Shown here: positions 14,901-64,000 of the stretch, piece by piece | Position numbering within the stretch: the first letter of the stretch is position 1 | Layout of the letters: each line of letters starts with the position of its first letter | Source of the DNA: a virus | Strand: one strand, 5' to 3' | DNA length: 64,000 bases | Virus genome (UHGV): UHGV-1352889 | The notes under the pieces: model-generated | The model's database searches: none | Told to the model about the DNA's origin: nothing | What the model saw: the letters and a program-made list of their open reading frames with translations, nothing else | Program-made: the position numbers and the translations under genes

Positions 14901-17900
14901 TTCCTTATTTGGGAATGACAGGGTATTGGGCAGGTCGTTAATGGCTTCTGCCATGAATGAGCTTGCCGCGGCACTGCCCTCGTAGGTATATATTTCGGAG
15001 GCCCGTTCCACTAGGTTGCGGAACTGGGTGAAATTGCTGATGCCCATACGGGTTGCGCCTTCCACCCATGCCTTCCGGGTTTCGTCGGAGACAACCAGAC
15101 TTTCATGGGCAATGGATTTGTCCACCCATTCGCGGGCAACTTCCGCGGCATCCCCCTTCTCCCCGGCAATCTCGATAACCTTCTTTCCGGTTTCTACCAA
15201 GCTTTCCGGCACATTGTTTTTGGTAATGGCTTTGCCCGTTTCCTCGATGATGTTGCTCGCATCTTTCGTAATATCCGGTAGCATGGAAGTAGCATCCTTT
15301 ACATCAAGGGTGGGAACGGCTTCGGTTTGGAAACGTATGTTCCCTTCCCCAGCTAACTGGCTACCAACGTAGCCGCCGATACCCCCAAGGAAAGCAATCT
15401 TTATAGCACCGCTAATCACTTGGTCAGTAGTGGCAATAGAGGATTCGGAGATTTCTCCGTTCTTCACCAGTTCAGTAAATGCCCATTCTTGGAATTCGTC
15501 TGCCAGTTCTTCGGTGGCTCCTTCCACTGCGGCCTTGCTCGTGCTGTACAGATAGGAAGCAACGGAAAGCGTCTTCTCCTTGGTAGTCATTTCAGACCAC
15601 GGCTTGCTTCTCCATCTGGCCATCTTCTGTTCAAGGGTTTGGAATGGAGATTGACCGCGAAGGTTTTTAGCTCCAACAATCTTACGCATGTAGGAATCCA
15701 CACCTGCGCGGTTGTTGATAAGCGTACTGCCAGCGGAGACCAGAGCCGCACCAAAGAGGGCACGCCTACTGGCAATGCTCTGTGCCCGGTTCGTGTTCTC
15801 GGCAGTCGGTTCCTTCCCTTCCATCTCCCTGTCATAAATGGTATAGAAGATGTCGGAGTAAGCATTCGGTGCAACCTGCGAGATGATGGTAAGGTTTACC
15901 CCAGCACCAGCTCCCGCCCTTTCAAGGCTCAAGGCCGCAAGGTTATTAAGGTTACGCTGAATAGTTCCACTCAAACGTCCCGCCAATCCCGGACGGGCGG
16001 CAGGGACCAAAGCTTCTGCCCGCTTCGCTACGACGTTAGCCGTTGCCCTCGCGAACTTGGTCAGAGCGGTACGTTCCAATGCGCGGCCAGCAAGGCCACC
16101 GATTTTACCAGCCCCCGCGGTTGCCACCATTTGGTAGCCGAGGTTAGCGATTTCCGCAGTATAGTCTGCAAGGATGTTGCCTCGAACAAGTTCAGCTTCC
16201 GCTTCCTGTTTTTTGTTCAGCTGGTCCCAGAGGGTGCGGGTATGTTCCATCGCCGCACGACTGCCGACTGCATTCTGCGCAAAGAGAAGAGCACCATAGG
16301 CGGCCCCTGTCCCAAGGTCGATGGCTTTGTGCGTGCCTATCTGGAACCCACGGAGAATAGGATTGATGTGAGCCTGTCCTTTCTCCTGCCACGCGGAGAG
16401 AATGTCCTCGTCGCTCTTGCCCGCTTCCTTCTGTTCATTGTAGAAATTCTTGAAGGAAAGGTACTTGTCCAGATACTTCATGCTTTCGGTCCAGATAGGG
16501 TAGACCCGCATGCCGAAACCAAGCCACGTATCATGGAGCGTTCCCAGCGTTTCATCTAATGCAATGTTGTCCTTCACAAGTTCCTGTGCGGATTTCGTGC
16601 GGAGGTTCTGGAACTTTTCAATGGTGCGATTAATGAGACCTTCGTCCGCGCCGCTAGCACGGAGAGCCTCAATGCTCTTGTCCATCAGCTTGTTGTCGTA
16701 GAGAGCATTGGGGTTCAGTTCGAGAGTGGCGTTCGTATCAACTTCCTTGGTGTGCGGGTTGTACGCAAAGAGACTGCCACGGCCTACGCCCAAGTCACCC
16801 ATACGTGCGGCATGGGAGAGGGAGTTGAGGGCATCGCGAGTATTTTCAATATGGTATTGGGCCATGTATTCCTTCAACCGTTCGGGACCTACATCAAAAG
16901 AGGGACCCCCCAGTACGCCATACTCCCATGTGCCACGCCTCGTTCCCTTTCTCCACTCCATTGTACTTAATGGGTCAGAGGTCTTGCCCACACTATCTCC
17001 CGGCTGGAGGGTAAGCACATCCGCAATTTGTCCCCCCGTGCTTCGGTAGTTAGCCATTGCGCCCTTGACCGCATCCATGAGAGTGCCTCTCGGCGTAGCC
17101 TTGGCGACATAACCCTGAATCAGATTGGTTACTCCCGCTTGGTACAGGATGGATTTGGGAACCCCCGGAAACCTTGTAGCCACGGCTTCCAGTATAGCCT
17201 CACTCATGCCAATCTGTTCATCGGTCTCGAAGGTCAGGGGGCGGTCCTTCTTGCGACGAAGGTCCTTGGCAAGAACTTTGGCCCTTGCACGTATTGCGTC
17301 CATGTCAGCATTGGGGACTAAAGACAGAAGGGTAGAGGCCGCGGCTTCCGGATTGAGAATCGCGTCGCGAAGTTCGAGGTAGGGAAGGCCAGTGTAGTCT
17401 TCTTCGAGCCGACGTACCATTTTGTCTGCCGCCTCTATCTGTTCACGAATCCTATCCTCAACAGGCTTTTCTTTCTTTGAAGTTTGATGCCTGGGGATAT
17501 AGATATCACCGTTCCGGGAAAGGTAATCCCCGTAGTCGCGGACAAGCCGGAACATTTTGCTGGGAGACTTAGAGAGGTTGGCGAGTTCAGCAAAAACATT
17601 CCCAGTAAATGAAGGTGCTGAATCAGAGAATTCGCCAACGCCAAGCTCCCCCACGTTCGTCTGGCTGGGGGTTTTCTTCTGCACGTTCTCCGTCGAAGCG
17701 GCTCGGTGCTTATTATAGAGAGACTTAGCGGCACGATAGTTGTCAATGTCTTCGCGCCTAATCGTATTGATGATGCTTTCTATTTCCTCCGCAGTGTAAG
17801 CAATGGGTGCGCTCTCGATGGCTTCTGCTTTAGGTTTACCTGAATAATCTAGATGCGAGTTGAGGTAATCCTTCCGGGCCTTTTCCATTGTGCTGGCAAT

Positions 17901-18578
17901 GGATTTGGCCACCGCCTTTGCGTTACGGTTTCTGTCCGCGGCAATGGCGAGGAACTTTTCCGTTACGACGGGGTTCCCGTCCTCTCCCATGCCGAAGCCA
18001 AAGCGGGATAAGAATGCGGGTTGCTGGGGAGAAAGTTCGGAGGAAGAGACTGCGACGATGCCCGTGTTATTCGTAAGCTTTTTAATGGCGTCACTATCAC
18101 CACGAGCGGCGGCCTTCAAATCAACCCGCGCATCTTCTCCGCTGTCTAGGTAGTTCTTTATGTAGTCGATTCCCTCAAAGGTGAACCCACGGTTTCCTTT
18201 GTTCAAGACATCAACGTCAGCCTTTTCCGCGGCGGTTTTCCATTGTTGTTCCGTATGGGCGCGGGTTTTTGTTTCCCATTCTACGTTACGTGCGCGGTCT
18301 GCCTGTTCAATCTGTTTCTTCTGAAAGTCCTCAATGGACTTAGAGACATAGTCATCAAACTCCGCGGTAGCTCCTGCGGCTTTCTCCGCGTGGGTCTGTT
18401 TCTTTTCCGCTAACCTTTGCTCGCGGTCTAGTGCTTTCTGTGCTCTGTCTTCCTGTTTCTGTTTTTGCGTCTCTTGCCACGTGGCGTGCCTTTCTGCGGC
18501 TCGCTGTTCACGCGCGATACTGCTTGCCGACGTCGGAGCGAAGTCGGACATATTGGCGGTACTAAAGTCAATGGCCAT
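8934..18578 (-). CDS. giant multidomain virion-associated protein (3214 aa)
   Basis: Uninterrupted 9.6-kb ORF; coiled-coil/Ala-rich N-terminus; HExxH (VLHEAIHLI) mid-protein; no canonical RNAP DxDGD motif found by eye. Confidence 0.8.
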   Translation of the reverse strand: MAIDFSTANMSDFAPTSASSIAREQRAAERHATWQETQKQKQEDRAQKALDREQRLAEKKQTHAEKAAGATAEFDDYVSKSIEDFQKKQIEQADRARNVEWETKTRAHTEQQWKTAAEKADVDVLNKGNRGFTFEGIDYIKNYLDSGEDARVDLKAAARGDSDAIKKLTNNTGIVAVSSSELSPQQPAFLSRFGFGMGEDGNPVVTEKFLAIAADRNRNAKAVAKSIASTMEKARKDYLNSHLDYSGKPKAEAIESAPIAYTAEEIESIINTIRREDIDNYRAAKSLYNKHRAASTENVQKKTPSQTNVGELGVGEFSDSAPSFTGNVFAELANLSKSPSKMFRLVRDYGDYLSRNGDIYIPRHQTSKKEKPVEDRIREQIEAADKMVRRLEEDYTGLPYLELRDAILNPEAAASTLLSLVPNADMDAIRARAKVLAKDLRRKKDRPLTFETDEQIGMSEAILEAVATRFPGVPKSILYQAGVTNLIQGYVAKATPRGTLMDAVKGAMANYRSTGGQIADVLTLQPGDSVGKTSDPLSTMEWRKGTRRGTWEYGVLGGPSFDVGPERLKEYMAQYHIENTRDALNSLSHAARMGDLGVGRGSLFAYNPHTKEVDTNATLELNPNALYDNKLMDKSIEALRASGADEGLINRTIEKFQNLRTKSAQELVKDNIALDETLGTLHDTWLGFGMRVYPIWTESMKYLDKYLSFKNFYNEQKEAGKSDEDILSAWQEKGQAHINPILRGFQIGTHKAIDLGTGAAYGALLFAQNAVGSRAAMEHTRTLWDQLNKKQEAEAELVRGNILADYTAEIANLGYQMVATAGAGKIGGLAGRALERTALTKFARATANVVAKRAEALVPAARPGLAGRLSGTIQRNLNNLAALSLERAGAGAGVNLTIISQVAPNAYSDIFYTIYDREMEGKEPTAENTNRAQSIASRRALFGAALVSAGSTLINNRAGVDSYMRKIVGAKNLRGQSPFQTLEQKMARWRSKPWSEMTTKEKTLSVASYLYSTSKAAVEGATEELADEFQEWAFTELVKNGEISESSIATTDQVISGAIKIAFLGGIGGYVGSQLAGEGNIRFQTEAVPTLDVKDATSMLPDITKDASNIIEETGKAITKNNVPESLVETGKKVIEIAGEKGDAAEVAREWVDKSIAHESLVVSDETRKAWVEGATRMGISNFTQFRNLVERASEIYTYEGSAAASSFMAEAINDLPNTLSFPNKENLDTMRTMLSEALDAMGDRVQVIEVDDDLSILTTGDEDLDAAINVINGLTEAAATKESPVPTEPTATTESPELTARKERDQAIASVTNMVDTGVVTPEAVETVDTLDAAITSFDPNTGAWLSSGSPLDRGTKLVSLNEMTGINAPLVTSNTGETIVVSPHASMYNMGEGGTPSTKWGDRVSALNLPSDGTGVNAYGILSDLRVKASPAQAAAIDGVLRALHAAGLDVAIRATNAPANIASPASITYMNGTDGKLVGGVIDLYMDRDNAIESVTGTVLHEAIHLIDRHLRATNADYSQRMDKIRSAVAENYNQFIDSLTAMYEASVDINEMNAIAALASDLNYGLRGPDEFASVAFSNPVMNFMIAEVSGDNVTLTDLARYAEAAGGRRPVHVRLIEWLKDLIRDVRQTADDMDGTTAAKNAAEWDSYVDRVADITPGKWFDMPRTPSWKVDDTDYTMSHEVDYFNPLAYETDMTQRLSFGLGAEIIGTNAGNWVTSVKNVWQGVSKGWDKAGINVKSEEQKLIVLEQRTNVNAAYERSIKRIDKIGDMLQRRADSLGWDAATRKKWSKSILDMSGNMDNDIDPETVARINAEAQAEVRQHEQTRDFRIALAKKTVTDAVNRHAEAVRLANSLALNSEGRLEINDMMRRIKDMSVKGYGAMLDKTVALPMLSQQIHKSLSDLGSRISATGDANLETSYFSLARDTQNYLADMINEVDSPFSMDELLDRWSNLRNDYLYAESTNHPAIAPMIQDISRARAEAKQIIREANDDFYAATKRAGVTRAGVTTPAGSVWLKRDNAILDARRQKQAEYMAKRDAAEQWLLSQGVVGQLVYNVIADSRKEIAATQISIAKLIGDSRMANNAAEMNYLHRTYMAVGRHAGDFTRTMKDIIAHPNGEMAQKYDGLTKLLQEAAIAHAEAHQTELSENISQVLDNMQALAAFHDELKLPLVSAPPGASSNYKLLFEGVAKNYRTREILDFIQNNFGRVQMLADLRDGHNISAMYNKAMSMIAQADYRTKSKMAEMKETLDMKARDSFLADVFSSLPGNTIADKIGGLESPASVASEVNKAIPTIPTSAIDQIWNAPNMNAAERLDKTLNLLRGQAGILMRANNMGNVISATDLKVLQYPELSRLAVSDAMKAIDEVLTKKRTNEDALAQRKRLPEWQRKAMYELSDLTIGDAIGTLQNTISMQSKIAVNQLLADEYATVLKAQGVVVPATSTNRTPDMVEISLKNTKNALNGLYADKDVADAIYHIYRPSDDIMNSRTDDYKKVRKYWQKSGKGQGWGSKAGSLANLSVLIASPNSTLRNLYGTVAQMTHAGALPFTGSKDIANLVGDWLQLRKLRRLSKGKDLGSQASADRLLAAEDRYNEKIRYWQELGLLDAGQGEFLRNVWKSDEFSKMAGEFEEVNEDSFFKLAEALNEKQERTKGEVAKDAAKMAGKVVAWPIKTMAFAYGLPDAAAKIVLFTNQRAIADTQLKVQLARAKGKANPNARDQILLDASQTDQSWNAYVDRYTAHMVKSLLPTGSRTPSWVKILNIVMAPFFMFQYHTAQSVVYNLGHAIGEGVDGVWAINNGMKKEGAYLLGRAILRAAGSVGTISATSAVSSLFARQIITSVLGDDDDRKIIDDAEVMRKLADSGLIPDYDKFGDLIGIIDMKRHEFEYLNLEYMNPFKTIKVLAKTLPSLFMDMDVDKWGMNKVAELKNLLENTVLEESLLLNAASELFNEEDFNYKHSLSGDESVNVLPAVGNAILLAAGLNPSFGSGHTWQALERVATVANKKIPFYGWAVKTGKQFASDTPDMSTAAYLLQTFGAGLRRPKDLTEALAAGLKNANAAVTKSKRMSILRPDFYKRMESGMDVELMEAVETADAVKNFTKLVNSVRFVTEITNMLDPSIRSEVLDSVIESSGMSAKTYGAAMQGIMPYVISPQAGREAIAKLNRELQKSNTTDEGKRLIEEQKQLIINLMQKGSIPIDGALSTEEIHNRMK

Positions 18579-46903: not shown

Positions 46904-47563
46904 TTATTTTTCGTCAGCTTCGGGCTTTTCGCCCTTCTTCTTTAGCTTCAAGGTGATGGTACGGGCCGCGCTTCCTTCTTCCAGTTCAGGACGAGTGCCA
47001 TCCTTGTTCAGAGTTACTGGTCCACCCTGCAATCCCATCTGCGTCACTATCTCGGTTTGTTCCAGCTCGAACTGCTGGATAACCTGTGACAGTAGGTCCA
47101 TGTCGCGCTTCGCAATCGCTTCGTTAAACTTCTCCCACAGACCGTGGCTTCGCTCCATGATAGAGAGGAAGAGAGGTACATCCTTAATGGATTGTATCTC
47201 TGCGTCGGCCATGAAGGAAGCGACACGGGAGAATCCACTGTTCATCAGTTCTTTGTACTGGCTACTCATGGATTCAACGATGTCAAGCTCAATCTTCGTC
47301 CTCGCCTCTTGGCGTTGGAGGATGCGTGCCTGTGTGTTCTGTGTGTACGTATTGAGAAGTTCATTGCGGATAGCCAGTTCCTCCTTCGAGAGTTGGACGC
47401 TATCAACAATCTTATCAACACGTTCACGGGAGAGGCCAGTAACTTCCGAGATGACAGGAACCGGGGTCCCTGCCTTGTACATCTCAATGGCCTTCCTTAT
47501 AACGGTGTTCTCGTTAGTGATTGGTTTGGGAGCAGAAATCTTAGCGGCGGCTCTTAGGTCCAT
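46904..47563 (-). CDS. HTH-containing protein downstream of terminase (219 aa)
   Basis: VISEVTGLSRERVDKIV helix-turn-helix-like; coiled-coil C-terminus. Confidence 0.45.
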   Translation of the reverse strand: MDLRAAAKISAPKPITNENTVIRKAIEMYKAGTPVPVISEVTGLSRERVDKIVDSVQLSKEELAIRNELLNTYTQNTQARILQRQEARTKIELDIVESMSSQYKELMNSGFSRVASFMADAEIQSIKDVPLFLSIMERSHGLWEKFNEAIAKRDMDLLSQVIQQFELEQTEIVTQMGLQGGPVTLNKDGTRPELEEGSAARTITLKLKKKGEKPEADEK

Positions 47564-49392
47564 AGCATGTTCATTGCGGCGGTTACGTCGGAGGCAAAGG
47601 TGTCGCGGGCAGGAGCGGGAGCGGGGGCATTGCCTCCGACGAAGCCTCCGAGATACCTGCCAATGTCTGCGGCTTCAATATATGCGGTTCCGTCTTCGCG
47701 ATATTTGATTACCTCTTGATGTTCTACCACCTTATGGTTCTGAATGTCAAGCCTAATCTTACCGAACTCCGGTCCCATGATTCCCCGGCACACGTGCACC
47801 AATAGTGCTAGTGCGTCCGCGTTGTCCGGGGATTTATGAATCCGCTTCTTCATGGCCGCCTTGGGTTCCACGGCAATTCGGGTTCCATTCATGGTGTAGA
47901 GCCGGGATTTAAGCTCGACGATAGTTGTCGGGTCGAGGCCATAAAGTTGGCGAGCATTGATTGCCAGTTTCATACATCCCCAAAGCTCGGAGACCTTGTT
48001 GCTATATTGCTGGCATGCCTCCTGATTCTGCAACAGGCCAATGGGCACCTTGCTCGCCATACCCGCGAAGCTGACCGTCTGGAAGTCCGTGCCGACATGC
48101 TGGGCGAGGATGTCGATGAAACCAGTACCTCCGGTTACGTCCACGGCAAGGTACTTACTTTCAACCCCGTTGGCCCGGAGAATCTCTCCAACTTGCTGGG
48201 CGATGTCGAAGTTCCTTTGCTTCATCCGTTCCTTGTCGGACGTAGACTTCAACAAATAGGTACGGAACACCGCGCACGCCCAAAGCCCTTCAACCGTTCG
48301 TCCGACTTTGGCGAGCTTCAAACATGACTGGTCGCCGCCGTTGGTGTAGGCAGGGTCGAGACCCGCTATCGTAATCAACCCGCCGTCTCCCCAGACGGGC
48401 ATGGCATCCGCGCCACTGCCGTAAATTTCAGCCTCCGACATTAGTGAACCTTCTTCCGTATCGTCTGAAAAGGTAGCCCGGTGGAACCGCATCACGAACG
48501 GACTATTCTCCCCGTACTGTTCAATCGTTTGCTGAACGATGTCCAACGGAGTGTAGAAGCTCCAATCCTCGCGGCCATATTTGATGCGGGGGTTCTGGGT
48601 GTTGTCGAAGCGGATGTAAATCCCGTCCTTGGTCTCCCACTCGTATTCCTCAAAGATGTCAACGCTGTTCCACCCATCCTTGGGCATAGCCATAACACCA
48701 AAGGCATCGGTGCGGCTCTTGGGGTTAGAGGCGGCCATCAGGGTAGGAGGCGTGTCCGCTCTGTTGGTGATGAGGTTGGTACGCCACACCTCGACGAGTT
48801 CAATCGGCAATTCGGAAAGCTCGTCGTAAAAGACGTGCATGTTCTTTGCCTTAATACCGATAAATCGGCTACTGGGGTCGCCGACGTTCGCGCAGGGGAT
48901 AATGGAGATGCCGCGGGAATCGTCAATATCTCCGTCCTCGTTCACGCCTTTAATCTGTCCCTTGCCATCAACGAGCTTACCCGGAAATTCCTTGCGCCAC
49001 AACCGTTTAATATCCTTGAAGATACGTTTCTTCGCACCTTCAATAGTAGTCGATGTGACTAGGCAAAGGGTATCGACGGGGTCGGCCAGATAGAAGAGCG
49101 TCGCCATGATAGCCATAGATAATGACTTCCCAGAGGACGAGCCTCCACCCATGATGACCACATCATATTTGCACGCGGTTTCAATCATCCGTTCAATCCA
49201 CGGTGTCCAGATAATGGGAGTAGGACTGCCCTTGTAATTCCACAGGAGATTGATGGCGTTCTTAGCGTGTCCATACCTGCCCAGCCCTCCCTTCTCTTCG
49301 GGCCACGCGTATTTGAAGCACCAGAGTTCGATGTCAAGCTCTGATACTCCGTACTCCCATTGTCGTCCGTAGCGAGTAAAGTGTCGTGCCAT
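47554..49392 (-). CDS. terL: terminase large subunit (TerL)
   Basis: N-terminal P-loop VVIMGGGSSSGKSLSMAIMATLFYLA (Walker A) followed by acidic Walker B-like HVFYDELSEL; C-terminal nuclease-sized domain; 612 aa. Confidence 0.7.
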   Translation of the reverse strand: MARHFTRYGRQWEYGVSELDIELWCFKYAWPEEKGGLGRYGHAKNAINLLWNYKGSPTPIIWTPWIERMIETACKYDVVIMGGGSSSGKSLSMAIMATLFYLADPVDTLCLVTSTTIEGAKKRIFKDIKRLWRKEFPGKLVDGKGQIKGVNEDGDIDDSRGISIIPCANVGDPSSRFIGIKAKNMHVFYDELSELPIELVEVWRTNLITNRADTPPTLMAASNPKSRTDAFGVMAMPKDGWNSVDIFEEYEWETKDGIYIRFDNTQNPRIKYGREDWSFYTPLDIVQQTIEQYGENSPFVMRFHRATFSDDTEEGSLMSEAEIYGSGADAMPVWGDGGLITIAGLDPAYTNGGDQSCLKLAKVGRTVEGLWACAVFRTYLLKSTSDKERMKQRNFDIAQQVGEILRANGVESKYLAVDVTGGTGFIDILAQHVGTDFQTVSFAGMASKVPIGLLQNQEACQQYSNKVSELWGCMKLAINARQLYGLDPTTIVELKSRLYTMNGTRIAVEPKAAMKKRIHKSPDNADALALLVHVCRGIMGPEFGKIRLDIQNHKVVEHQEVIKYREDGTAYIEAADIGRYLGGFVGGNAPAPAPARDTFASDVTAAMNMLWT

Positions 49393-50928: not shown

Positions 50929-52143
50929 TTATTTGATTTTGAGCAAAGCCATCGCGCTCGTCACTTCTTTCACTACTCCAAGTTCTTGAAGCTCTTCGAG
51001 TAAGGATTCCTTGGCTTCTTTCATCTCGGCACGTGTGGCTCCTTCAACTTTGTTTTTATCTACCACCATGTCAAGAAGCTTCGACACAGGGAGGCGGGAG
51101 ATGCTGTCCAGAATTTCCTCTGGGGAAATGTACTGCTCGACGTAGGCACGGAAGGCATCGTTGTCCACCTTTACGGTATTACCTCGCCGTGCATACTTCC
51201 ATCCGGGAACATCAACGCCGCAAGCGAAGAGGGTCTTGGCATAGTCCTTATGCACCTTGTTGGCCTCCGCGATAATGTTCGCAAAGGAAAGAAGGGAGCC
51301 AAGGGTTTCCGGGTTGTCCATCGCCGTACCGACGCTATCAATCATCCCTTCGGCTAGGTCCTTGTCCTTCAACACTTTGAGCGAGAAGTTACGGGCCATG
51401 CTAGTCACCTTCTTACACCGGGCGAGACGGGAACAGTAGGGGCAGACGTGCGGAGAGGATGAGTAAGCGTAGGGGTTCTCCGCGTCACGGCAATGGCGGG
51501 CAATGACTGCGGACATGTTTCCCCTTGCGGTAGCCTCGTCCATAGGGACTGCGGACATGTCGGTGGTGAACTTCGGCCCCTTACCGTCGCGGTAGAACGC
51601 CGCAATCTTCATGCTTTCGGTCTGGCTGGGTTGTACCACCGCGAGGATAATGCGCTTACATTCAGGGCGTTCTGCCATTTCCAGCAAACCATAGTAGATG
51701 AACTGGGTATTCTCGGCAGGGTCAGAGACAGGGACCATCCCCATTTTGTAGTCGATAATCATGGAAGTATCACCATGCCGGACAAGAACGTCAGCCGTTC
51801 CGGTTTGTGCTTCGTCGTCTGGGTTGAAGACGATTCCTTCAAACTTGTGTTCCGGGAGTACTTCTACCTTGTCCGTTTGTACCTCGGTTGCGAAGATGGA
51901 CATGAGCCTATCCACCATGTTGGATGCCGCAGTGTAGAGGATGTGCTCATGCTTGGTAAGAAGGGATTCTGGGTTCTTGGTTTCGAGGGCCGCGTGAACA
52001 CGGGTCCCAATGGCCGCCGGGGAGAAGTCATCCTCTTCTTCCTCTTTAGTCATGGGGCGTGGGACATATCCGGGACAGGTGGCGAGCAATGCCATCTTAC
52101 TCGGACTGTACTTGCTGTGAGTGTTGGTTTCGTTATAGGCCAT
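50929..52143 (-). CDS. PD-(D/E)xK nuclease, Cas4/RecB-like, with C-terminal Cys cluster (404 aa)
   Basis: MIIDYKMGM (RecB motif III hhDYK) and HCRDAE…VCPYCSRLARC Cys cluster typical of Cas4-like Fe-S nucleases. Confidence 0.55.
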   Translation of the reverse strand: MAYNETNTHSKYSPSKMALLATCPGYVPRPMTKEEEEDDFSPAAIGTRVHAALETKNPESLLTKHEHILYTAASNMVDRLMSIFATEVQTDKVEVLPEHKFEGIVFNPDDEAQTGTADVLVRHGDTSMIIDYKMGMVPVSDPAENTQFIYYGLLEMAERPECKRIILAVVQPSQTESMKIAAFYRDGKGPKFTTDMSAVPMDEATARGNMSAVIARHCRDAENPYAYSSSPHVCPYCSRLARCKKVTSMARNFSLKVLKDKDLAEGMIDSVGTAMDNPETLGSLLSFANIIAEANKVHKDYAKTLFACGVDVPGWKYARRGNTVKVDNDAFRAYVEQYISPEEILDSISRLPVSKLLDMVVDKNKVEGATRAEMKEAKESLLEELQELGVVKEVTSAMALLKIK

Positions 52144-54559
52144 TTGATGTTAATGCGTTAAAACAAATTTCTTTAATATTGAGTGATTGTATGATTCGTT
52201 CTTCCACTGTACCAGAGGCAGTCACAATGTACTGCAAGGTGTGTGACTTAGCACCAAGACGGGCAATGCGTCCTTGTGCCTGAACCAGATTAACCAGTGA
52301 AAAATCTAAGTTAATGAGAGATGCTCTAGGGTTACTTCCTGTCGTATCGTGAAGTGAAACTCCTGCGCCCCCTGCACTGATTTGTACTAAGGCTAATCTA
52401 TTAGTATTGTTTTGGAATTTAGTTATTTCATTGTCTCGGTCATTCCCTGTAACTCGTCCACTTATCTCGGAGTAAGAGATGTCCTTACCTGCTTCTTCGT
52501 TGATTAAGTTGCTTAGACTGTCTAGACTGTCTATGAACGCAAGGAAAATCACTACGCTATAGCCACTGTCTAAAAGTTCTACTGCTTTTTTAGAGAGGGC
52601 AGGAAGCTTAGCCAGTTCCGATTGCTGACGAAGCCGCAGGAGTTCCACGATAGCGGGAAGTTCGGTTCCCTTCTCGTTAGCCCGTTCGATGGACTGGTCC
52701 CATGATTTGTCCAGCTTGTCAAGTGCTTTCTGTAATTGTTTAATCTCTCTCATACCTTTCATGTCCACGTCCACGGACAGATATTCGATTCTATTCTCTG
52801 GGAAGAAAGTGTCAAGCTTTTCCTTGTCAATCTCTGTCATAACCCCCGCAGTGTAGAGCTTTTGTTTCAGGCTCTCCATCATGGCGTGGTTACGTGGGTT
52901 GAGCTTGAACTCAATGCCTCCCCAGAAACAGTCGGTGCATCCGTGCATGCGTGCCCAGAGCCAGAACCCGCGCCGGGGGTCTTGAATCCACTTGGCATAC
53001 GTCGCGGGGACGCTCATGTCGAGAGGGGAGATAAAAGGTGTGGCAGAGAGCATAATCGTCGGAAGTCCTTGATGAGCCGCGGTTAATGCCATTATGTTGC
53101 TCTGACTTCCATAGGTCTTGGCCTTGTGGCTTTCATCGAAAATGAGTAATGAGTTGTTAGGAAGATTCCATGTACCAAAAACAACACGAGACTTAGGAAT
53201 CTTTGTGGGGCGTTTGTAGTAGGGAGTACCGCCTCTGCGCACCTTCTCCCATGAGAGGACTTCTATATATTCTACTCCTTGTTGTTCGAAGGCTCGCTTC
53301 CATTGGGTCACGACGATGGCGGGACAGACTACTAACGGCTTGAGATTTAATGTGCTCGACGTTTCTATTGCGCATAAAGTATTGTGAGTAATTGTAAAAT
53401 CTCCGAGCAAGCAATGCGGTTCTTCCTTTAGAGTGAATCCGAAGTACTCTCCTTTTCCTATAGGCTCTAGCTTAAAACTATCTCCCACTCGCCCCATAGT
53501 TTCTCCCTGCCAAGCCTTCTGGGGAATTTGTTTTCTCTTTAGTCTTGTGGGGATTATATGGATAGGACCAGTTATAAGTATCAAGTAGCATTGCGACTTG
53601 GCATGGCCGTTCTGATGCCCCGCTTGCATTGAAGTTTTCAGGCCCAAGGAATTTGCTAAAAATTGAACTCCTTTCAGTATATCTTCATTAGTATTACTAA
53701 ATTGTAATACGTGTTTAGGAGCATAGTAACAACCATCTGTATCAATTAACCCTGCTAAAAGTTGGAGACGGTCTTCTCGACTTGCTGTTAAATAATTATG
53801 AAGGATTGTCTTATATGGAGTATCTCCTTGACATACTCTCCTAATTACTCGGTAGGGGGTTTCCGCATCTTCTTTGCCTTTAATGATATGCCATTGAGCA
53901 CATTGAGTGGACACGCCGTTGAAGTACGGTCCCGTTAATTTCCACCCCTCCTTACGGCAAGTTTCCTCCACTGCCTCTTTAATTTCATGGTCATTGACGT
54001 TAATTGATATTTTAGCTCCATACTCTCGGACGGAGGTCCCATCTCCCAAATAAGCTCCTACGAAATAAGGGTCCAACGGCAGTTCCTTTTCTTCAAAATC
54101 TACCGAAGCTGTCACGAGCCTTGCACGCTTCCTCAAAGTAGGGGCTATGGCCATAAACTCTGAAATTGTGTAGTCATGAAGTTTTCCCTGCACATTTCGC
54201 CAAAAAGGTCGTAAAGAAGGTTCTGCGGGACTTACCGCAAATTGAACCGTGAGAATATGAGAGGCATTACAGGTCCAAGGCTTACCACGTCTGGGAATGA
54301 CTTTGTACATTTCTTCCTCCCCGTGAGCTAAACTGGTAATTGTTCGAGGCTTGGAATCAGGTCCCATTAACTGGTCCCCTACTTTCAAGGTTTCTACCGG
54401 AACTATGGTTCCATCATATTTGAGCATAGGGGTCCCCTTCCCCCAGCATTTACCACATCCTGTGGCACTTGTGTTAATAGTATAGCCTTGAGTTTTAATG
54501 GCTTCTACCATCTCGTTTATACATTGTTGTTGCGGAGGGAAGGGAACTAGAGGTTTCAT
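52133..54559 (-). CDS. SF2 (SNF2/DEAD-like) helicase precursor interrupted by an intein in the Walker A motif
   Basis: Walker A split: …TSATGCGK|C…intein…HN|TLCAIE; DExH box LIFDESHKAKT; motif VI LVQAQGRIARLGAK; extein about 452 aa. Confidence 0.75.
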   Translation of the reverse strand: MKPLVPFPPQQQCINEMVEAIKTQGYTINTSATGCGKCWGKGTPMLKYDGTIVPVETLKVGDQLMGPDSKPRTITSLAHGEEEMYKVIPRRGKPWTCNASHILTVQFAVSPAEPSLRPFWRNVQGKLHDYTISEFMAIAPTLRKRARLVTASVDFEEKELPLDPYFVGAYLGDGTSVREYGAKISINVNDHEIKEAVEETCRKEGWKLTGPYFNGVSTQCAQWHIIKGKEDAETPYRVIRRVCQGDTPYKTILHNYLTASREDRLQLLAGLIDTDGCYYAPKHVLQFSNTNEDILKGVQFLANSLGLKTSMQAGHQNGHAKSQCYLILITGPIHIIPTRLKRKQIPQKAWQGETMGRVGDSFKLEPIGKGEYFGFTLKEEPHCLLGDFTITHNTLCAIETSSTLNLKPLVVCPAIVVTQWKRAFEQQGVEYIEVLSWEKVRRGGTPYYKRPTKIPKSRVVFGTWNLPNNSLLIFDESHKAKTYGSQSNIMALTAAHQGLPTIMLSATPFISPLDMSVPATYAKWIQDPRRGFWLWARMHGCTDCFWGGIEFKLNPRNHAMMESLKQKLYTAGVMTEIDKEKLDTFFPENRIEYLSVDVDMKGMREIKQLQKALDKLDKSWDQSIERANEKGTELPAIVELLRLRQQSELAKLPALSKKAVELLDSGYSVVIFLAFIDSLDSLSNLINEEAGKDISYSEISGRVTGNDRDNEITKFQNNTNRLALVQISAGGAGVSLHDTTGSNPRASLINLDFSLVNLVQAQGRIARLGAKSHTLQYIVTASGTVEERIIQSLNIKEICFNALTSNGL
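53381..54448 (-). mobile_element. intein (356 aa) with LAGLIDADG homing endonuclease domain
   Basis: Starts with Cys right after GCGK of the P-loop, ends ITHN followed by Thr (+1) that restores GKT; two LAGLIDADG motifs (GAYLGDGTS and LLAGLIDTDGCYY); boundaries verified by reverse-complementing 53381-53404 (GDFTITHN). Confidence 0.75.
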
Positions 54560-57522: not shown

Positions 57523-57912
57523 TTAGAATTCGGCTTCATTGGCTTCCTGCACATCAATAATCCAGTCAAGACTGTCAATGCACTTGTTCAGCTGGTCACG
57601 CTTCTGGCTAAGCTCGTACCGGTCGCGGAGGTTCTGGTTCTGCGCCTTCAAGTTGGCGAGACGTTCATTGGACGGGCGTCCCAGCTTCTTGCCATTCTTG
57701 CTATAGCCGGGGCGGGGAGAATCCGCAACCGTGGTAACGTGCGTACTATTCATCAAGTTGCCAAGACCGTCAAGGAGATTGATGAGCTTGACAATGCGGT
57801 TGTGGTTATTGCGAAGGGACTTCAATTCCTCTTCGGCTTTTTCCACCTGTGAGCGAAGCTCGGATTCAAGAGCTTTCAACTCGGTAATCATGTTGTCGTC
57901 GGTCGTAGTCAT
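57523..57912 (-). CDS. coiled-coil protein (129 aa)
   Basis: Heptad-like N-terminus (ITELKALESELRSQVEKAEEELKSLRNN). Confidence 0.5.
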   Translation of the reverse strand: MTTTDDNMITELKALESELRSQVEKAEEELKSLRNNHNRIVKLINLLDGLGNLMNSTHVTTVADSPRPGYSKNGKKLGRPSNERLANLKAQNQNLRDRYELSQKRDQLNKCIDSLDWIIDVQEANEAEF

Positions 57913-58042: not shown

Positions 58043-60913
58043 TTACATGGTTTCCGCAAGTACCTTAATATGTTCATATTGTGAATACACCCTTGCCTTC
58101 GTTTCTGCGCTTGCTTCCTTCAACCAAATGTCGATTGGCATGAAGAAGAAACGCTTTGTACGCTTGGGGTCATCGAGGCGTTTGACATTTTGACGTATCA
58201 GAGAATCGGAACCGTAGGACGCGATGAGGTCTCGTTTGAAGTTAGCGTCTGCCCAGTTCTCCACCTTCTCCATGTCTCCGAAGTTCTTACGGACATAAGC
58301 GAGGATGTTGCGCATAGCGGTAAAGTCGCCCGGTATCTTTTTGGAGAGCCTCTCTCCCTTCGTGTCCGTATCATTGGGAGCCACGGGGACAAGGTACTTC
58401 GTCAGGTCAGTATCATTGCCTCGGCAACTGGCATACTGTTCCGCGAGGAATGCACCGACTTTTTCCAGATTAGCCCAACGGTATTCGCCATCTTCATGAG
58501 CGTCTACCATGTATTTAATCTGTGCCCAAAGTTGCTGGTTGTCAAGTTTGAAGAGCTTCTCCACCGCCCAGCTGTTGGCACTAAACCCGGCAGGGATTTC
58601 TTCCTCCGGCGTGGTGCGTTCACCTAAGATTACCGGGTAGTAACGGCGAGTGCCTGTGGTATCTCTCAATACCTCTTCTTGGTTCGTACTCCCAATGATA
58701 CTTGCGCAGTACTCATAGGTTCCCGGAGAATGGGCGAAAGCAACACGGCAACTTTCAGATTCCCCGGTAATGATTCGCTTCAACTTACTCTCCTTTATTT
58801 TGTTAGCGACTTCTTCATCAATCTCGTCCAAGACGATAGCAGAGTGCCGGGCCATCTGGACCACGCTATCCGCACTATTCAATCCTTCGATGGAGCTAGC
58901 CACGTCATTGCGGACCCCACGGAACAACCAGTCCGTGGCTTTCGTTTTACCCAGCCCCTGCGCACCTGTGAGCATGGGAACGTAGTTCTGCGGGAAGCTG
59001 GTCTGGGATTCCACATGGGTGAGGAAGCAGAGACGGCGGGTCACGCGCTTCCACAAGGTGACGAGCCATGTCGTGAGCACCATGTCCCGGTACTTGTCCG
59101 GGGTCCAGCCTTCGGGCATATCTATGTTCTGATTCATGGGAAGGTAGTCCAAGAACGCACGCAAACGGTCCTGCCCGTCCCAAGGACGAGAACTGACGAA
59201 CGTAGCCAGCGGGTGGTAGTAGTTGGTCTGCGCAATACTTGACAACGCGTCGCGAAGTCGCGGAGTAGGAATGGCCTGACCGGGAACAATCAACTGCCAG
59301 AAGCTCGAAATCTTGCTCAATATAGTATCACTCGTCTCGTACCACCTGCTGTTCTTAAAGTCCAAGAGCAGGAGTTCGTTCGTGTTCATTCGACGGAAGG
59401 CACGGAGATTTAGGCCATGATGAAGAAGATACTTGATGTTCTCGTCGGTCAGGATGGGGATGCTCTTGCCCGCCTTGTTCTTTCGGACATAGGGGAACTT
59501 GAGAGAGCAGAGCTTCAACGCGCTGACCTCCGGGAGAGGGGTGTTCGTATTTACCGGAGCAATTCCCTGCATGAAGCACTTCATCAGGAGAGGGTCTTGA
59601 CACCACGGCTCAACCCCTGCCTTCTTCTCGGCTTCCCCCTCCAACTCCGTCAGGTACATGTCGAAGAGCCATTGCACCGACATAATCTCCGGGTTCGCGC
59701 CATTGCAACTGGCATGGAAGCAGTGGAAGTAGGACTGCCGGGGGTACTGGGGATTGGGGTAGAAGCGAAGGTCCGTGTTCTGGCTATTGCCCGATTTGCC
59801 TCCCTTGCACTGTGGGCACTCACCATAGAGGCAACCGTCCCCCTTAATATAGTCCATGCGGGAGAGGCCTTCGGCGGTATCATAATACTCGTTCACCTTC
59901 AACCACGCAATGAAGTCCTCGAATATCTTGGGACGGGAACTGCCGGGAGCCACGGACGGAAGTTCGTAACTGACCGCCCGGTTCTTGTCGTATTGAAGGT
60001 AGTCCGCTTTCGCCTTCTCCATATCGGGTACATGGAATCGAGGGGTTCCGGGGGTTCCGGGGATGAAGGTGTCCAGATAGAAGAACTGCATCCGCGCAGG
60101 GTCGGTACAGGCCATGTCGAGAACAAATCCGGTTCCCTCGTGGATGTACTGCGCGAGGGAATGATATACTGCTTTGTGGAGATAGATGCGTTCATTTGCC
60201 AATCGCTTCACGTCCAGTTCATCATTTCCCTCGTCCTCCACCACCTGCGGATTCTGGTTCAGGTATTGGAGCGTAGAGTTGGAGATTTGGAAGAATGCCT
60301 TAATCCCCTGATTGGGACTTACGTATGCGAAGAGGAAGCCATCCAGCTGGGGAAGCTTCTCCTGCGCCGCGGCGAGAAGAGATTCCGCAGTATGTTTCTT
60401 GTTCTCCTTGAGGTCTACGTCAATTCCGAAGATACCCGTATGCCGCCACGATGTTCCATCTACACTGACGAGGCTACGGTTGGTATAGTACCTTGCACCC
60501 TTGCTGTCGAGGGCGTAGTCATACAATCCGGGCTTGCTTAGGAACTGGACAGAGGGTACGATGGCAGGAAGCGCGGGCTTAATATCCTTGGCTTCTACAC
60601 CGTGCTTGTGCCAGTTGGAGAGGATGCTCTTATATACGGGAGGCATGGAGAGCGAGTTCTCGTCCAGCTTCCCCTGCATCACCTTAAAGAGTTGCACCTG
60701 ATAGTAATACTGCATCAGTTCCTGATTTTCTACCGTCATGCCCATGAGAAGGCGAAGGACCTCCGGCAGGGCAATGGCGACGGCGCGGTTGCAACTGCCC
60801 CCGGTGGGGAGTTTCTTCATACCTTCGGCCAGCTGTAGTTGAGATATGCGGGGTGCGGTAAAGGTCAGTTCAAGTTTCTGAACTGTTTCATCGTTAAGTA
60901 GTTCTATGGTCAT
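58043..60913 (-). CDS. putative primase-helicase (Zn-finger + P-loop NTPase, 956 aa)
   Basis: CPQCKGG…SYFHCFHASCN zinc-binding element resembling primase CHC2-type fingers; Walker A LTGAQGLGKTKATDW and Walker B AIVLDEIDEE in the C-terminal half. Confidence 0.55.
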   Translation of the reverse strand: MTIELLNDETVQKLELTFTAPRISQLQLAEGMKKLPTGGSCNRAVAIALPEVLRLLMGMTVENQELMQYYYQVQLFKVMQGKLDENSLSMPPVYKSILSNWHKHGVEAKDIKPALPAIVPSVQFLSKPGLYDYALDSKGARYYTNRSLVSVDGTSWRHTGIFGIDVDLKENKKHTAESLLAAAQEKLPQLDGFLFAYVSPNQGIKAFFQISNSTLQYLNQNPQVVEDEGNDELDVKRLANERIYLHKAVYHSLAQYIHEGTGFVLDMACTDPARMQFFYLDTFIPGTPGTPRFHVPDMEKAKADYLQYDKNRAVSYELPSVAPGSSRPKIFEDFIAWLKVNEYYDTAEGLSRMDYIKGDGCLYGECPQCKGGKSGNSQNTDLRFYPNPQYPRQSYFHCFHASCNGANPEIMSVQWLFDMYLTELEGEAEKKAGVEPWCQDPLLMKCFMQGIAPVNTNTPLPEVSALKLCSLKFPYVRKNKAGKSIPILTDENIKYLLHHGLNLRAFRRMNTNELLLLDFKNSRWYETSDTILSKISSFWQLIVPGQAIPTPRLRDALSSIAQTNYYHPLATFVSSRPWDGQDRLRAFLDYLPMNQNIDMPEGWTPDKYRDMVLTTWLVTLWKRVTRRLCFLTHVESQTSFPQNYVPMLTGAQGLGKTKATDWLFRGVRNDVASSIEGLNSADSVVQMARHSAIVLDEIDEEVANKIKESKLKRIITGESESCRVAFAHSPGTYEYCASIIGSTNQEEVLRDTTGTRRYYPVILGERTTPEEEIPAGFSANSWAVEKLFKLDNQQLWAQIKYMVDAHEDGEYRWANLEKVGAFLAEQYASCRGNDTDLTKYLVPVAPNDTDTKGERLSKKIPGDFTAMRNILAYVRKNFGDMEKVENWADANFKRDLIASYGSDSLIRQNVKRLDDPKRTKRFFFMPIDIWLKEASAETKARVYSQYEHIKVLAETM

Positions 60914-61905
60914 TTGAGAATGAATACTTTGTTTTCGGGGTTAATGATTTTCGAAGTGTAATCAAAAGTTATTTGCATACGGTAGATGATGTCATCCAAG
61001 TACTTGAGGGCAGTGTTTCGGCAATTACCACAGGACCGGGCGAGTTCGAGGTACTCCCGTTTCGTCATGGAGGCTCCGTTCAGCCGCCCCATTGCACGAA
61101 GCACAAAGTGCAGTATGCTGTCCGGGAAGGTGAGGTAGATGCGCTTAATACTGCGCCGGAAGTCCTCATCGATTACCCAACGGGCGAAGTGGTCTTCTTC
61201 CTTGAGCAGGTCACAACGCCCAGCGGCGGCTACTACATCTTTATATTTGGCGTAGTACCGCCACTTCCAGTCGGGAAGTACTCCACCCTCCGTAAGATGT
61301 TGGAGATAGGGGAAGACCTCGTACTTAGGCCAAATGCTCGTCTCATCTATATAGTTGAATGCCCTTGCGTACAGGAGGTCAAGGGAATGGTCGCTAAGTT
61401 CACCAAGGTAGGTGGTGCTGGCGAATGCGCGTACCATTTCCTTGGTCGGCATGAGTGGGACGTTGTAGAAAAAGTCCAGCATCTGGACGAGGGCTTCACA
61501 ATATCCTTCCGTGCCATAATTGGAATAGGCCGCCGTGATGGTGTGTCTACCGTAGGGTGTCCATACCGTTTGAGGAATGGAGTAGACGAATTGGTAGAAG
61601 TGCTCCCAGCGAAGTTCTCGCGGGGTGGAGGGTGCGATAGGTATGTCGTACATGAGCGGAACGGTAGCATGGTTGAGACAAGTTGTCAAGCTCAAACCGA
61701 GACAAAACGTTTTTCTCTTTGACCACGGAACCCACGGTAGCCGGGGGAGAACGTATGCTAAGGAGTTGAGAGCAAATGAGTTATGAAATGAGACACAGAG
61801 AAAGCTGTCCGTTGTATCACTGGGAACTCGTTGAACATAAATGGGTAATATAATTGGGTCCGTGGGTTCCGTGGGTTCCGGGGAGACAAAAGTTTGTCTC
61901 ATCAT
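60910..61905 (-). CDS. hypothetical protein, first gene of the minus-strand replication block (331 aa)
   Basis: ORF; N-terminus PEPTEPTD encoded by tandem GTGGGTTCC 9-mers; immediately downstream of AT-rich noncoding region. Confidence 0.5.
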   Translation of the reverse strand: MMRQTFVSPEPTEPTDPIILPIYVQRVPSDTTDSFLCVSFHNSFALNSLAYVLPRLPWVPWSKRKTFCLGLSLTTCLNHATVPLMYDIPIAPSTPRELRWEHFYQFVYSIPQTVWTPYGRHTITAAYSNYGTEGYCEALVQMLDFFYNVPLMPTKEMVRAFASTTYLGELSDHSLDLLYARAFNYIDETSIWPKYEVFPYLQHLTEGGVLPDWKWRYYAKYKDVVAAAGRCDLLKEEDHFARWVIDEDFRRSIKRIYLTFPDSILHFVLRAMGRLNGASMTKREYLELARSCGNCRNTALKYLDDIIYRMQITFDYTSKIINPENKVFILK

Positions 61906-61954
61906 AAGTCATTGATTTTCAACAGGGGAACTTTCCTTTTTTTATATTGAGACA

Positions 61955-62025
61955 TGAGACATATAAATAAATAAATTATAATATATAATAATATAATAGG
62001 GGTATACATATATATATATATATAG
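61955..62025. repeat. AT-rich tract with (AT/TA)n microsatellite
   Basis: …aaataaataaattataatatataataatataat…atacatatatatatatatatag…. Confidence 0.8.
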
Positions 62026-62196
62026 GAGGGAGCGGACTTGTCTCGCGTCTCACCCCGCCTGATTTAGTTGTAACTATATGCGGCTCAAGCACTTAACCCC
62101 CTGTCTCAACACGTCTCCGCCTTGTCTCACTTGGCTCACTTTTTCACAATCCTTTAACTCTCAATGCTTACCGCAGATTAGGTTTCTGTCTCACCC

Positions 62197-62236
62197 AAAA
62201 GAAAACCCCGGAAGCAGGACGAGCCTACCTCCGGGG
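62197..62236 (-). terminator. candidate rho-independent terminator for a minus-strand transcript arising in the noncoding region
   Basis: Stem CCCCGGAAG/CCTCCGGGG (7 bp + 1 mismatch), A-run AAAAGAAAA on + strand upstream; shares the 14-mer CCTCCGGGGCGATG with the terminator at 35428. Confidence 0.4.
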
Positions 62237-62365
62237 CGATGACGAAAACATCATACCTATCAAATAACCACGGCCACTATACCAAACCTCCAGCCAATGT
62301 CAAGACCTTTGTGCGTCCTCTTGTACGCACGCGCCCACGCGGGTGTACGCCCCATTTCCAAATCC

Positions 62366-62438
62366 CCTGAATTTAATCGAGGGTCCTACCCTAGAACGCG
62401 CCGCACGGGGCGGTCCGCTACAACTATCCACCCGGACC
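62366..62438. repeat. about 73-bp element, copy A (GAATTTAATCGAGGGTCCTACCCTAGAACGCGCC core)
   Basis: 34-bp identical core plus about 85% identity over about 70 bp with copy at 62845; flanked by a 10-bp inverted partner GATTAAATTC at 62468. Confidence 0.7.
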
Positions 62439-62844
62439 CCATCCCCTCCTTCTACCTCGCCACACTGGATTAAATTCGTAAACGCGCGGACTCTGTCGAT
62501 TTCCTCTTGACTTTCTCCCCTGATGTGGTATGTTGCACCTGTTCGCTCCGAACGGCAACCGAACCAGCTAAGCTCAATGCTTCTGGCTATCCCAAGCAAG
62601 GAACTTGCTCGCCACAGGAGCGGACTAAACACTCTCCTTTCTACAGGCATTTTCCATAGTTACGCCCGTGGGTAGTCTCGTCAAGCTACCTGCGGGCTTT
62701 TTCTTTACCGCCAAATCCGCGAGAGCCGCTCCGTCGCATTATGCCCGCCGTGCGCAAATTTGGTCGATGGTAGTGCCCTATCTCCTGTTTCATGACTAAT
62801 GTACCATCTCGCTACCTATACCCCGTCACACTCTTGTAAATTTG

Positions 62845-62918
62845 CCCGAATTTAATCGAGGGTCCTACCCTAGAACGCGCCACAACCGCTGGTCCGCTAT
62901 AACTACCTGCCCGAAGGG
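62845..62918. repeat. about 73-bp element, copy B
   Basis: See copy A; spacing about 479 bp. Confidence 0.7.
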
Positions 62919-62949
62919 TATGCCCGCCTTCTAGGTCGATACGTCCCCC

Positions 62950-63076
62950 CCCGTGGAACGGCCGCGTGTCGATTTTGCTTGACATGGCAGGAATGGGGTG
63001 CAGACCAGATGAGGCTGAAACAGACCAGAAGTATATCCCGCCCGTGGAATGGCCGCATGTCGATTTTGCTTGACAT
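62950..63076. repeat. two copies of a 35-bp direct repeat (CCGTGGAAyGGCCGCrTGTCGATTTTGCTTGACATG), period 91 bp
   Basis: 33/35 identical; each contains TTGACA; CAGACCAGA duplicated between them. Confidence 0.7.
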
Positions 63077-63209
63077 GCCCAGAAGGGTACTCCCTCCCCC
63101 GTACCCCACGGAAAAAATTTGACCCAACTATTTACTATGGGCCACGTGCAACCCCGGAGCCTGGGAAACCGTGGTGGTGTTTGGATTTCCTTGGCATCCC
63201 ATTACCCCC

Positions 63210-63435
63210 TGTACCCACGGAATCGGTGCATCACGGAGCCTTTTTGCCCCTGATTGCACCGGGAACGGTATATCCCGGGGGGCCTGCCTATCTCCCACAT
63301 GTAGCGGAATCGGTATGATAGGCCACCGTATTGCAACGGGAATGGTATACCACCTGCCATGAACTGCCCTCGCCCCTGTCACGGGAACGGTACGCCATGC
63401 AACCCATTGAATCCTCGGAATCAGCGGTAGCCGTT
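63210..63435. repeat. iteron-like array of about 6 ACGG(G)AAyGGTA motifs at 34-45 bp spacing
   Basis: cccacggaatcggtg, accgggaacggtat, agcggaatcggtat, acgggaatggtat, acgggaacggtac, ctcggaatcagcggtag. Confidence 0.55.
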
Positions 63436-63796
63436 TGAGCATGTGGGACTTGTAGGGAAATGGTGTGCAATGGAGACCGAGGAATCCGAGGGTGCAATAC
63501 CTGTTTCCTATTGACACCCTGATATGCGTAACTCGTTGATACTCTAAGCAATCCGCTTCCATACTTCGCATAATACATATAATGCAAAATCGGCAAATGG
63601 TAATCCTACTAATCCGATAGGAATTGAAATTGAAGGTGCCGGAGAAGGCAGAAAAGGGGCAGGGTCTTGCCCTCAAATTGTCTGGTCTGGGACTGGTTAA
63701 GTATCAACAACATGTGAAGCATACCCATGCGGGTATAGGTATTTTTCCCTCATTAATAGTCAAATATTGGACTAATGGTTTTACATTTTTGTAAAG

Positions 63797-63846
63797 CCCC
63801 TATATCTTGTACGGCATATTGTTGCACGCCCCTATATCTTGCGTAC
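63797..63846. repeat. 14-bp direct repeat GCCCCTATATCTTG ×2
   Basis: Copies at 63797 and 63827. Confidence 0.6.
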
Positions 63847-63935: not shown

Positions 63936-64000
63936 GTTAGGCTGGACTTAAAAGTTAGACCGGACTTACAATGTTAGGCTGGACTTAAAAGTTAGACGGC
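63936..64000. repeat. tandem 18/19-bp repeats (GTTAGGCTGGACTTAAAA / GTTAGACCGGACTTACAAT), at least 3.5 copies, truncated by window end
   Basis: A-B-A-B arrangement = 37-bp higher-order unit ×2; runs off the window edge. Confidence 0.8.

Follow-up and report, generated by a model that had tools for sequence, protein, structure and literature searches.

Five exact copies of one asymmetric motif, CGGRAWYGGT, and a degenerate sixth copy stand in a single orientation in the main non-coding region of a human-gut phage, and our analysis shows this array to be real, unique in the genome, non-coding, independent of the neighbouring replicon module and without conserved RNA structure. Comparison with related phages suggests that it is best described as a group of DNA sites on which selection acts, and we predict that it is a new example of a familiar type of element, clustered protein-binding sites. 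The explanation of its function that we favour, while holding it at somewhat less than an even chance, is that the sites dock a putative sequence-specific regulator of the early control region and are not part of the replicon.

The phage is uncultured and has a genome of ~69.7 kb, most of which is covered by the window, the 64,000-nt stretch of DNA analysed here. Its DNA relatives are many in IMG/VR and gut metagenomes; the annotated phage collection gave none, neither the array region nor 24 kb taken from the window having a DNA match there, a tblastn search with TerL gave no match, and PolA found matches at about 25% identity only. Leftward genes run from 61905 down to 8934 and include a 956-aa VapE-type primase-helicase, PolA, an intein-bearing helicase, a PD-(D/E)XK nuclease, TerL and the structural genes, and rightward genes start just past the window end. 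Between these divergent operons, some 2.7 kb of non-coding sequence (window positions 61906 to about 64597), which we call the hub, divides the leftward replication and structural operon from the rightward early operon; there is no other large non-coding region. The array is located in this hub, and an earlier note on this DNA had correctly put it 1.3 kb from where the replication gene block begins. Its sites, with one further motif-like sequence, are as follows:

63218..63227, + strand: array copy 1, CGGAATCGGT in the context CCCACGGAATCGGTGCATC; exact match, retained in 15 of 16 relatives
63260..63269, + strand: array copy 2, CGGGAACGGT in the context TTGCACCGGGAACGGTATA; exact match
63305..63314, + strand: array copy 3, CGGAATCGGT in the context GTAGCGGAATCGGTATGAT; exact match, invariant in all aligned relatives
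63337..63346, + strand: array copy 4, CGGGAATGGT in the context TTGCAACGGGAATGGTATAC; exact match, the variants of relatives fitting the consensus with one exception
63382..63391, + strand: array copy 5, CGGGAACGGT in the context GTCACGGGAACGGTAC; exact match, with 1-base departures in two relatives
63416..63428, + strand: degenerate copy 6, CGGAATCAGCGGT, in most relatives CGGAATCTGT (from sequence and alignment)
63455..63464, + strand: motif-like GGGAAATGGT; one-mismatch match where the alignment is most variable, replaced in most relatives

The earlier note had described an array of about six motifs in one orientation and near-regular phasing. The array exists, as five exact copies and the degenerate one at 63416, and five of the six proposed positions (63220, 63260, 63305, 63382 and 63416) stand, but the copy placed at 63348 is actually at 63337. 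The single orientation also stands, all exact copies being on the + strand. From start to start the exact copies are 42, 45, 32 and 45 nt apart, corresponding to 4.0, 4.3, 3.05 and 4.3 helical turns, with a further 34 and 39 nt to copy 6 and to the 63455 site. The array is only loosely regular, and strict helical phasing is absent. In copy 6 the alignment shows the CGGAATC half to be kept in relatives and the 3' half not, and the 63455 site is probably not a functional copy. A longer consensus of ~16–17 nt, GCAMCGGRAWYGGTAT, is common to three copies.

Over both strands of the 64-kb window CGGRAWYGGT has 9 exact matches versus 1.44 expected from shuffles, which gave a maximum of 5 and in none of 100 cases reached at least 9. 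Five of the nine matches form one cluster of 175 nt, and the other four are scattered singletons; allowing one mismatch adds locally the 63455 site alone. The cluster is therefore unique in the whole-genome scan that had been proposed as a check, with four singletons elsewhere in the window and no further copy in the 5.7 kb of genome beyond it, which we read in the relative L015.

The pattern was taken from the data themselves, so we used conservation as an independent test, aligning the region from 16 distinct relatives that are 84–95% identical and, in addition, from a smaller set of relatives. Among the 16, variable columns amounted to 10/50 in the motifs and 75/159 in the spacers (Fisher p = 8e-4), the real motif mask was more conserved than every one of 79 slid versions, and the consensus was satisfied by 72 of 80 motif instances. 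Copy 2 alternates among relatives between CGGGAACGGT and CGGAATCGGT, both of them allowed forms of the consensus. The spacing between copies is constant to 1–2 nt, the single large insertion being 11 nt, about one helical turn. The alignment thus indicates that the motif positions are under purifying selection. That the array is instead a functionless relic of old local duplications, conserved in appearance through close kinship, we regard as highly improbable: its carriers are only these close relatives, and distant lineages are without it, as a relic would have it, but the motif columns are significantly more conserved than the spacers, such changes as occur keep to the consensus, and no similarity exists among the spacers, unlike those of a recent duplication.

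Gap runs across the array region measure 1, 2 and 11 nt among relatives, and ORFs overlapping the array show no codon-position bias in their alignment. The 1- and 2-nt indels and the flat codon-position profiles mark the region as non-coding, in agreement with the earlier reading, and for the same reasons the ORFs across the array and a 56-aa ORF at 63624-63794 were rejected as genes. The fold of the array region is no more stable than that of shuffled sequences (z = 0.06 on the + strand and –0.84 on the – strand), covariation was seen for 3 of 112 predicted pairs of the alignment fold, with the motifs outside conserved hairpin loops, Rfam gave no match to the region at gathering score or at E ≤ 1, and a tRNA search found none. 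A structured non-coding RNA was rejected on the z-scores, the near-absent covariation and the lack of an Rfam match. The motifs might act as RNA in a looser sense, within a long leader or RNA in which CGGAAU/GGGAAC forms a protein sponge or a C-rich + transcript loads Rho. The hub does contain several ORF-less units of promoter and terminator, GGA-containing motifs are frequent on the + strand of 63100–63500, and this strand is C-rich (GC skew –0.116). However, no promoter can be shown to point across the array, transcription running leftward from the distal promoter would first reach the – strand terminator at 63672-63657, and stable fold, covariation and Rfam match are all absent, which leaves an RNA role very unlikely.

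The array is bounded by two conserved elements:

63096..63190, + strand: Block A, left boundary of the array cassette, CCCCGTACCCCACGGAAAAAATTTGACCC..TTTACTATG..CCCCGGAGCC..GGAAACCGTGGTGGT; nearly invariant in close relatives
63500..63600, + strand: Block B, right boundary of the array cassette, CTGTTTCCYAYTGRCACC .. TCCATACTTCGCATAATRCATATAATGC; conserved in all lineages examined

Blocks A and B, together with an 18-mer, TGTCGATTTTGCTTGACA, are recognisable in lineages whose primase-helicase is 28–64% identical. The array-bearing filler between the blocks measures 395 nt in the window type, versus 280–290 nt of different sequence in other lineages, and these other fillers contain no significantly repeated 8-mer. 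Because the filler differs in this way, the array is a lineage-specific insert in a conserved framework, and the distant lineages that do without it indicate that it is not essential to that framework. One reading of this arrangement, to which we give little chance, is that the array and Blocks A and B make up an exchangeable 'specificity cassette' in an undescribed hub, with no service to the replicon but a use as a DNA decoy for a host regulator or as a polarity mark of genome entry or packaging. If so, the array would be a lineage-specific address for an unknown protein class in a family of ~70-kb gut phages.

Predicted sigma-70-type promoters and terminators lie around the array and none overlaps it; no convincing sigma-70 promoter was found within ~100 nt. 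Block B has two –10-like hexamers and no convincing –35, and it fails as a sigma-54 promoter because most relatives have GA in place of the invariant GG. The motifs themselves were tried as the –35 of alternative-sigma promoters (GGAAC/GGAAT/TGCAAC ... CGT) and rejected, the fit extending to one of five copies only.

A probable replication origin lies 1.0–1.3 kb to the left of the array:

about 61883-62193: probable replication origin, separate from the array, with ten GTCTC(A) repeats around an AT/(TA)n tract at 61960-62025
61883, 61949 and 61956, mostly – strand: GTCTC(A) repeats left of the AT tract
62040, 62047, 62103, 62113, 62124 and 62188, + strand: GTCTC(A) repeats right of the AT tract
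58043..60913, – strand: 956-aa primase-helicase with a Pfam VapE-like domain

At 10 copies per 400 nt versus a window mean of 0.675, GTCTC(A) clusters more strongly here than anywhere else in the window. Among solved structures, SaPI1 Rep1 (7PDS, E 8.5e-11) is the nearest to the primase-helicase. Proteins of the SaPI Rep family self-load at origins with 6–12 penta- or hexanucleotide iterons, two or more of them flanking an AT-rich region on either side and in opposite orientation, which are read by a C-terminal winged helix (PMC9371898). The 61883-62193 region is alike in that oppositely facing short repeats flank an AT tract (PMC9371898). It differs in position, SaPI origins being downstream of rep and the one in this phage upstream of the primase-helicase gene. 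On this layout we consider the region a probable origin with the primase-helicase as its initiator. Among relatives the origin layout is constant and the hexamer differs by module:

GTCTCA: the window and L007
AGGACA: L004
AGGACC: L005 and L006
GGTACA: L040
CTAACA: L052 and L054
GGAACA: L056 and L058
TAACAAC: L019 type

Nineteen helicase positions separate the AGGACA phage from all GTCTCA phages, and 14 of them fall in the C-terminal ~120 alignment columns. The full-length model of the primase-helicase is poor (mean pLDDT 44.9), with residues 840–956 at pLDDT 59–89 in a helix-helix-beta-hairpin pattern; Foldseek with this poor C-terminal model returned nothing significant, the P4 origin-binding domain 1KA8 appearing at E 2.8 only.

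Natural exchange of this replicon separates the origin from the array. L052 and L054 are ~90% identical to the window on both sides, and in them the segment from 58044 to about 62330, holding origin and helicase, is replaced by a module with its own iterons and a helicase 31% identical to that of the window. The same module is present in L021 and L038, and a third one in six further loci. These comparisons indicate that origin and helicase are swapped as one module, each with its own hexamer and in at least three types. The CGGRAWYGGT array is kept with the same spacing beside at least three of the replicon modules. Because it is unchanged when origin and helicase are replaced, it lies outside the replicon module and is indifferent to the initiator; inheritance with the initiator gene was not seen, the array remaining constant beside primase-helicases 31% identical while the hexamers at 61.9–62.2 kb change. 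The proposal that the array is a platform for origin-binding proteins is contradicted by this constancy and by the canonical origin at 61883-62188.

Classical iterons, such as those of lambda ori, P1 oriR/incA, F and RK2, are 17–22 nt long with a spacing of ~22 nt, lie directly against an unwinding element and are linked to the initiator gene. The array is like these plasmid and lambdoid iterons in being several direct repeats of an asymmetric sequence in one orientation, non-coding and near replication genes, and unlike them in its 10-nt core, ~16-nt site, spacing of 32–45 nt and exchangeable initiator. The layout of SaPI Rep and P4 alpha origins, with 5–8-nt iterons and an AT-rich tract, is also absent: the sites of the array are 10–17 nt long and all face one direction, no AT tract lies between them, and they do not travel with the helicase gene.

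The array could serve replication from a distance, either as an auxiliary cis element of distant initiator sites, for which crr of phage P4 and incA of plasmid P1 are precedents (a literature search on P4 crr returned nothing usable), or as the origin of another conserved initiator that unwinds the AT core of Block B. Its direct repeats in one orientation are indeed within 1.0–1.3 kb of the probable origin, a conserved AT-rich stretch, GCATAATACATATAATGCAAAAT, the nearest to the array and the 22-nt core of Block B, is found ~130 nt beyond the last good copy, on its right, and a CGGAAC-containing 9-nt tandem stands beside the origin in every module type. We nevertheless think a replication element unlikely. 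The array motif is not the origin hexamer GTCTCA, so the same DNA-binding domain would not be titrated or handcuffed; the array stays as it is when helicase-initiator and origin change, some lineages keep Block B without the array, and the spacing is irregular. A family-wide CACGGAA site joining the array to the origin-side tandem was rejected: CACGGAA has 28 copies on both strands of the whole window, versus roughly 8 expected from length alone, and the link is therefore not specific.

Terminase sites such as lambda cosB R1–R3 and SPP1 pacL/pacR are found beside terminase genes or at the genome end. A platform for the small terminase, as a pac site, had been suggested by the earlier note. On this reading, pac or cosB-like, packaging would start in or beside the array, and the genome ends or the first headful cut would fall in the hub; a few same-orientation, non-coding sites ~40 nt apart do recall the R-sites of lambda cosB. 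The hub is also the only large non-coding region, and many of the ~70-kb assemblies break inside it; these breaks, however, differ in position between contigs, occur in tandem repeats or in the (TA)n tract and in no case within the array, and look like assembly artefacts. TerL is 14 kb away (47554-49392; PHROG 2, E 4e-17), and L040, with 75% nucleotide identity over TerL, is without the array. No small terminase was found: the 219-aa neighbour of TerL, previously taken for an HTH protein, has no detectable HTH and no family match, and the 171-aa gene upstream of TerL has an N-terminus that by eye resembles a RuvC-type resolvase in the alignment. The packaging reading thus finds no support in these data, and we hold it to be distinctly unlikely.

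Among the closest parallels to the docking sites that we propose are multi-site asymmetric operators. The 17-nt operators of P1 C1 and the 13-nt 'stoperators' of mycobacteriophage L5 gp71 are each bound by one regulator and are scattered genome-wide at promoters or between genes. The array has, as an operator array should, several copies of one asymmetric site and conservation confined to the site, and it shares with the P1 and L5 systems asymmetric sites of 13–17 nt, many copies and a defined orientation. It is unlike them in that all copies are clustered within 210 nt and that no lysogeny genes were detected in Pfam and PHROG scans of the ORFs. The gene content argues against two other classes of multi-site element: arm-type sites of an attP, no integrase or recombinase family being present among the ORFs scanned (Pfam/PHROGs), and a partition centromere of the sopC, parS or parC type, no ParA/ParB or ParM/ParR family being detected and the spacers, in addition, being mutually unrelated, unlike the whole-unit tandem repeats of sopC.

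The model that we consider most likely is as follows. The array would offer five, perhaps six, asymmetric double-stranded DNA sites in the same orientation, with the core CGGRAWYGGT and an extended site of ~16 nt. It would belong to the constant 'early control' part of the hub, where it fills the lineage-variable cassette that Blocks A and B enclose. By occupying the sites cooperatively, the protein may build a nucleoprotein complex, and this complex may regulate or insulate transcription that starts at or crosses the flanking conserved elements, namely Block B with the downstream transcript bearing a hairpin and terminator, the D2 promoter-like elements and the early promoters. We infer that the array is bound by protein and that its output is transcriptional or architectural control. 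The broadest claim of the earlier note, that the array is a platform for protein binding, still makes the best general sense of these predicted sites.

A partner for the array did not emerge from the gene content. Pfam and PHROGs recognised no DNA-binding family among the early and neighbouring proteins, and cooccurrence pointed to no partner, close relatives sharing the array and most other genes alike. The first early protein (210 aa) was rejected as a covarying partner: it accompanies the array in L052 and L054 yet is missing in the array-positive L045. A 129-aa protein encoded directly after the primase-helicase (57523-57912, – strand) is 64% identical in L040 versus 34% for the helicase, and has a coiled-coil N-terminus, a KKLGRPSN motif and a weak PHROG match to 'transcriptional regulator' (E 1e-4). 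It is a candidate for binding one of the conserved non-coding blocks.

Our analysis relocates the origin call and splits two cis systems that a reading of the sequence alone had merged: a SaPI-Rep-like origin with its helicase, swapped as a module between gut phages, and a constant early-control region with the array. Where an uncultured phage family offers hardly any annotatable proteins, its cis elements give the most tangible starting points, and those described here could be used for finding a regulator via the array, for building replicons from origin and helicase, and for explaining the strong conservation of the 2.7-kb hub.

Several further signals surround the array. The 18-mer TGTCGATTTTGCTTGACA is present at 62967 (62946-62996) and 63058 (63037-63087) and nowhere else in the window, with 1–3 exact copies in lineages whose helicase is 28–34% identical. 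It includes a perfect –35 hexamer, for which the window has no –10. Ordinary promoters of a few Clostridia/Oscillibacter MAGs have it as their –35 and upstream part, a hint of a Clostridia host; the host is probably a gut species of the Clostridia or Oscillospiraceae. The D2 18-mer was rejected as a host or prophage pointer, its 30 genome matches being about the chance number and none of them related to the phage.

At the edge of the origin, a – strand unit at 62303-62197 has a strong promoter (TTGACA-16-TATAGT), followed ~40 nt later by a 14-bp terminator hairpin, and no ORF. It looks like a ~70-nt RNA ending at the origin edge, which could serve as a primer, as a transcript that activates the origin or as a regulatory RNA. 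Each type of replicon module carries a different version of this unit, and L006 has two copies (2705-2803 and 2829-2939). Pairing of this RNA-like unit (62197-62303) with the array was rejected, the match being 11 nt only and in the wrong sense, and the unit being part of the swapped module. On the + strand, a unit at 62507-62705 has a TG followed by the promoter TTGACT-16-TATGTT, ~150 nt and a 13-bp terminator (62664-62697), also without an ORF; its hairpin loop is like that of the unit at 62237-62205, and it has no Rfam match. A 94-nt direct repeat, 79% identical between its copies at 62366-62459 and 62845-62938, brackets the + strand RNA-like unit, and its left copy adjoins the recombination breakpoint of the replicon module. 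The exchanged cassette comprises the origin, the 331-aa gene and the primase-helicase (window 58044-~62330, L052 4217-8859, L019 17415-20918), and its breakpoints are sharp, at the 3' end of the helicase gene and at 62295-62358, immediately left of the D1 repeat.

To the right of Block B, conserved hairpins with loops that vary among relatives occur in 63640-63800 (63721-63736, ATACCC..GGGTAT; 63777-63798, TTTTACA..TGTAAA), and GCCCCTATATCTTG is present twice, at 63796 and 63828. Families of tandem repeats occupy 63936-63990 and continue past the window end (L015 16250-16770, – strand), with the units GTTAGRCNGGACTTAnAA (about 10 copies), CCGTTGAAG, CCGATTGC (three copies), ATAAATGC (three copies) and GGGGAACCG (seven copies). 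Past the window end they lead to back-to-back promoters before the first early gene; relatives have other repeat units there, and many metagenome contigs stop inside these repeats.

Some gene calls also deserve comment. In the 331-aa ORF at 60910-61905 the first ~85 codons (61653-61905) overlap repeats of the origin and a CGGAACCCA tandem whose conservation at the DNA level extends to all module types, and the orthologues are shorter, with 227 aa in L041 and 291 aa in L052. Its annotated start is probably wrong and 61653-61905 non-coding, in which case the hub would be longer. The 311-aa – strand ORF at 31-966 overlaps a 201-aa + strand ORF at 220-825, and the gene called in L040 matches the latter; the 311-aa ORF is probably spurious, which would place all early genes on one strand. 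Neither Pfam nor PHROGs gave any match for the 3214-aa ORF at 8934-18578 (– strand), with which the structural block ends. Finally, the 808-aa helicase at 52133-54559 (– strand) carries an intein with Hint and LAGLIDADG domains at residues 38–331, from which its orthologues of 451–454 aa in L040 and L041 are free.
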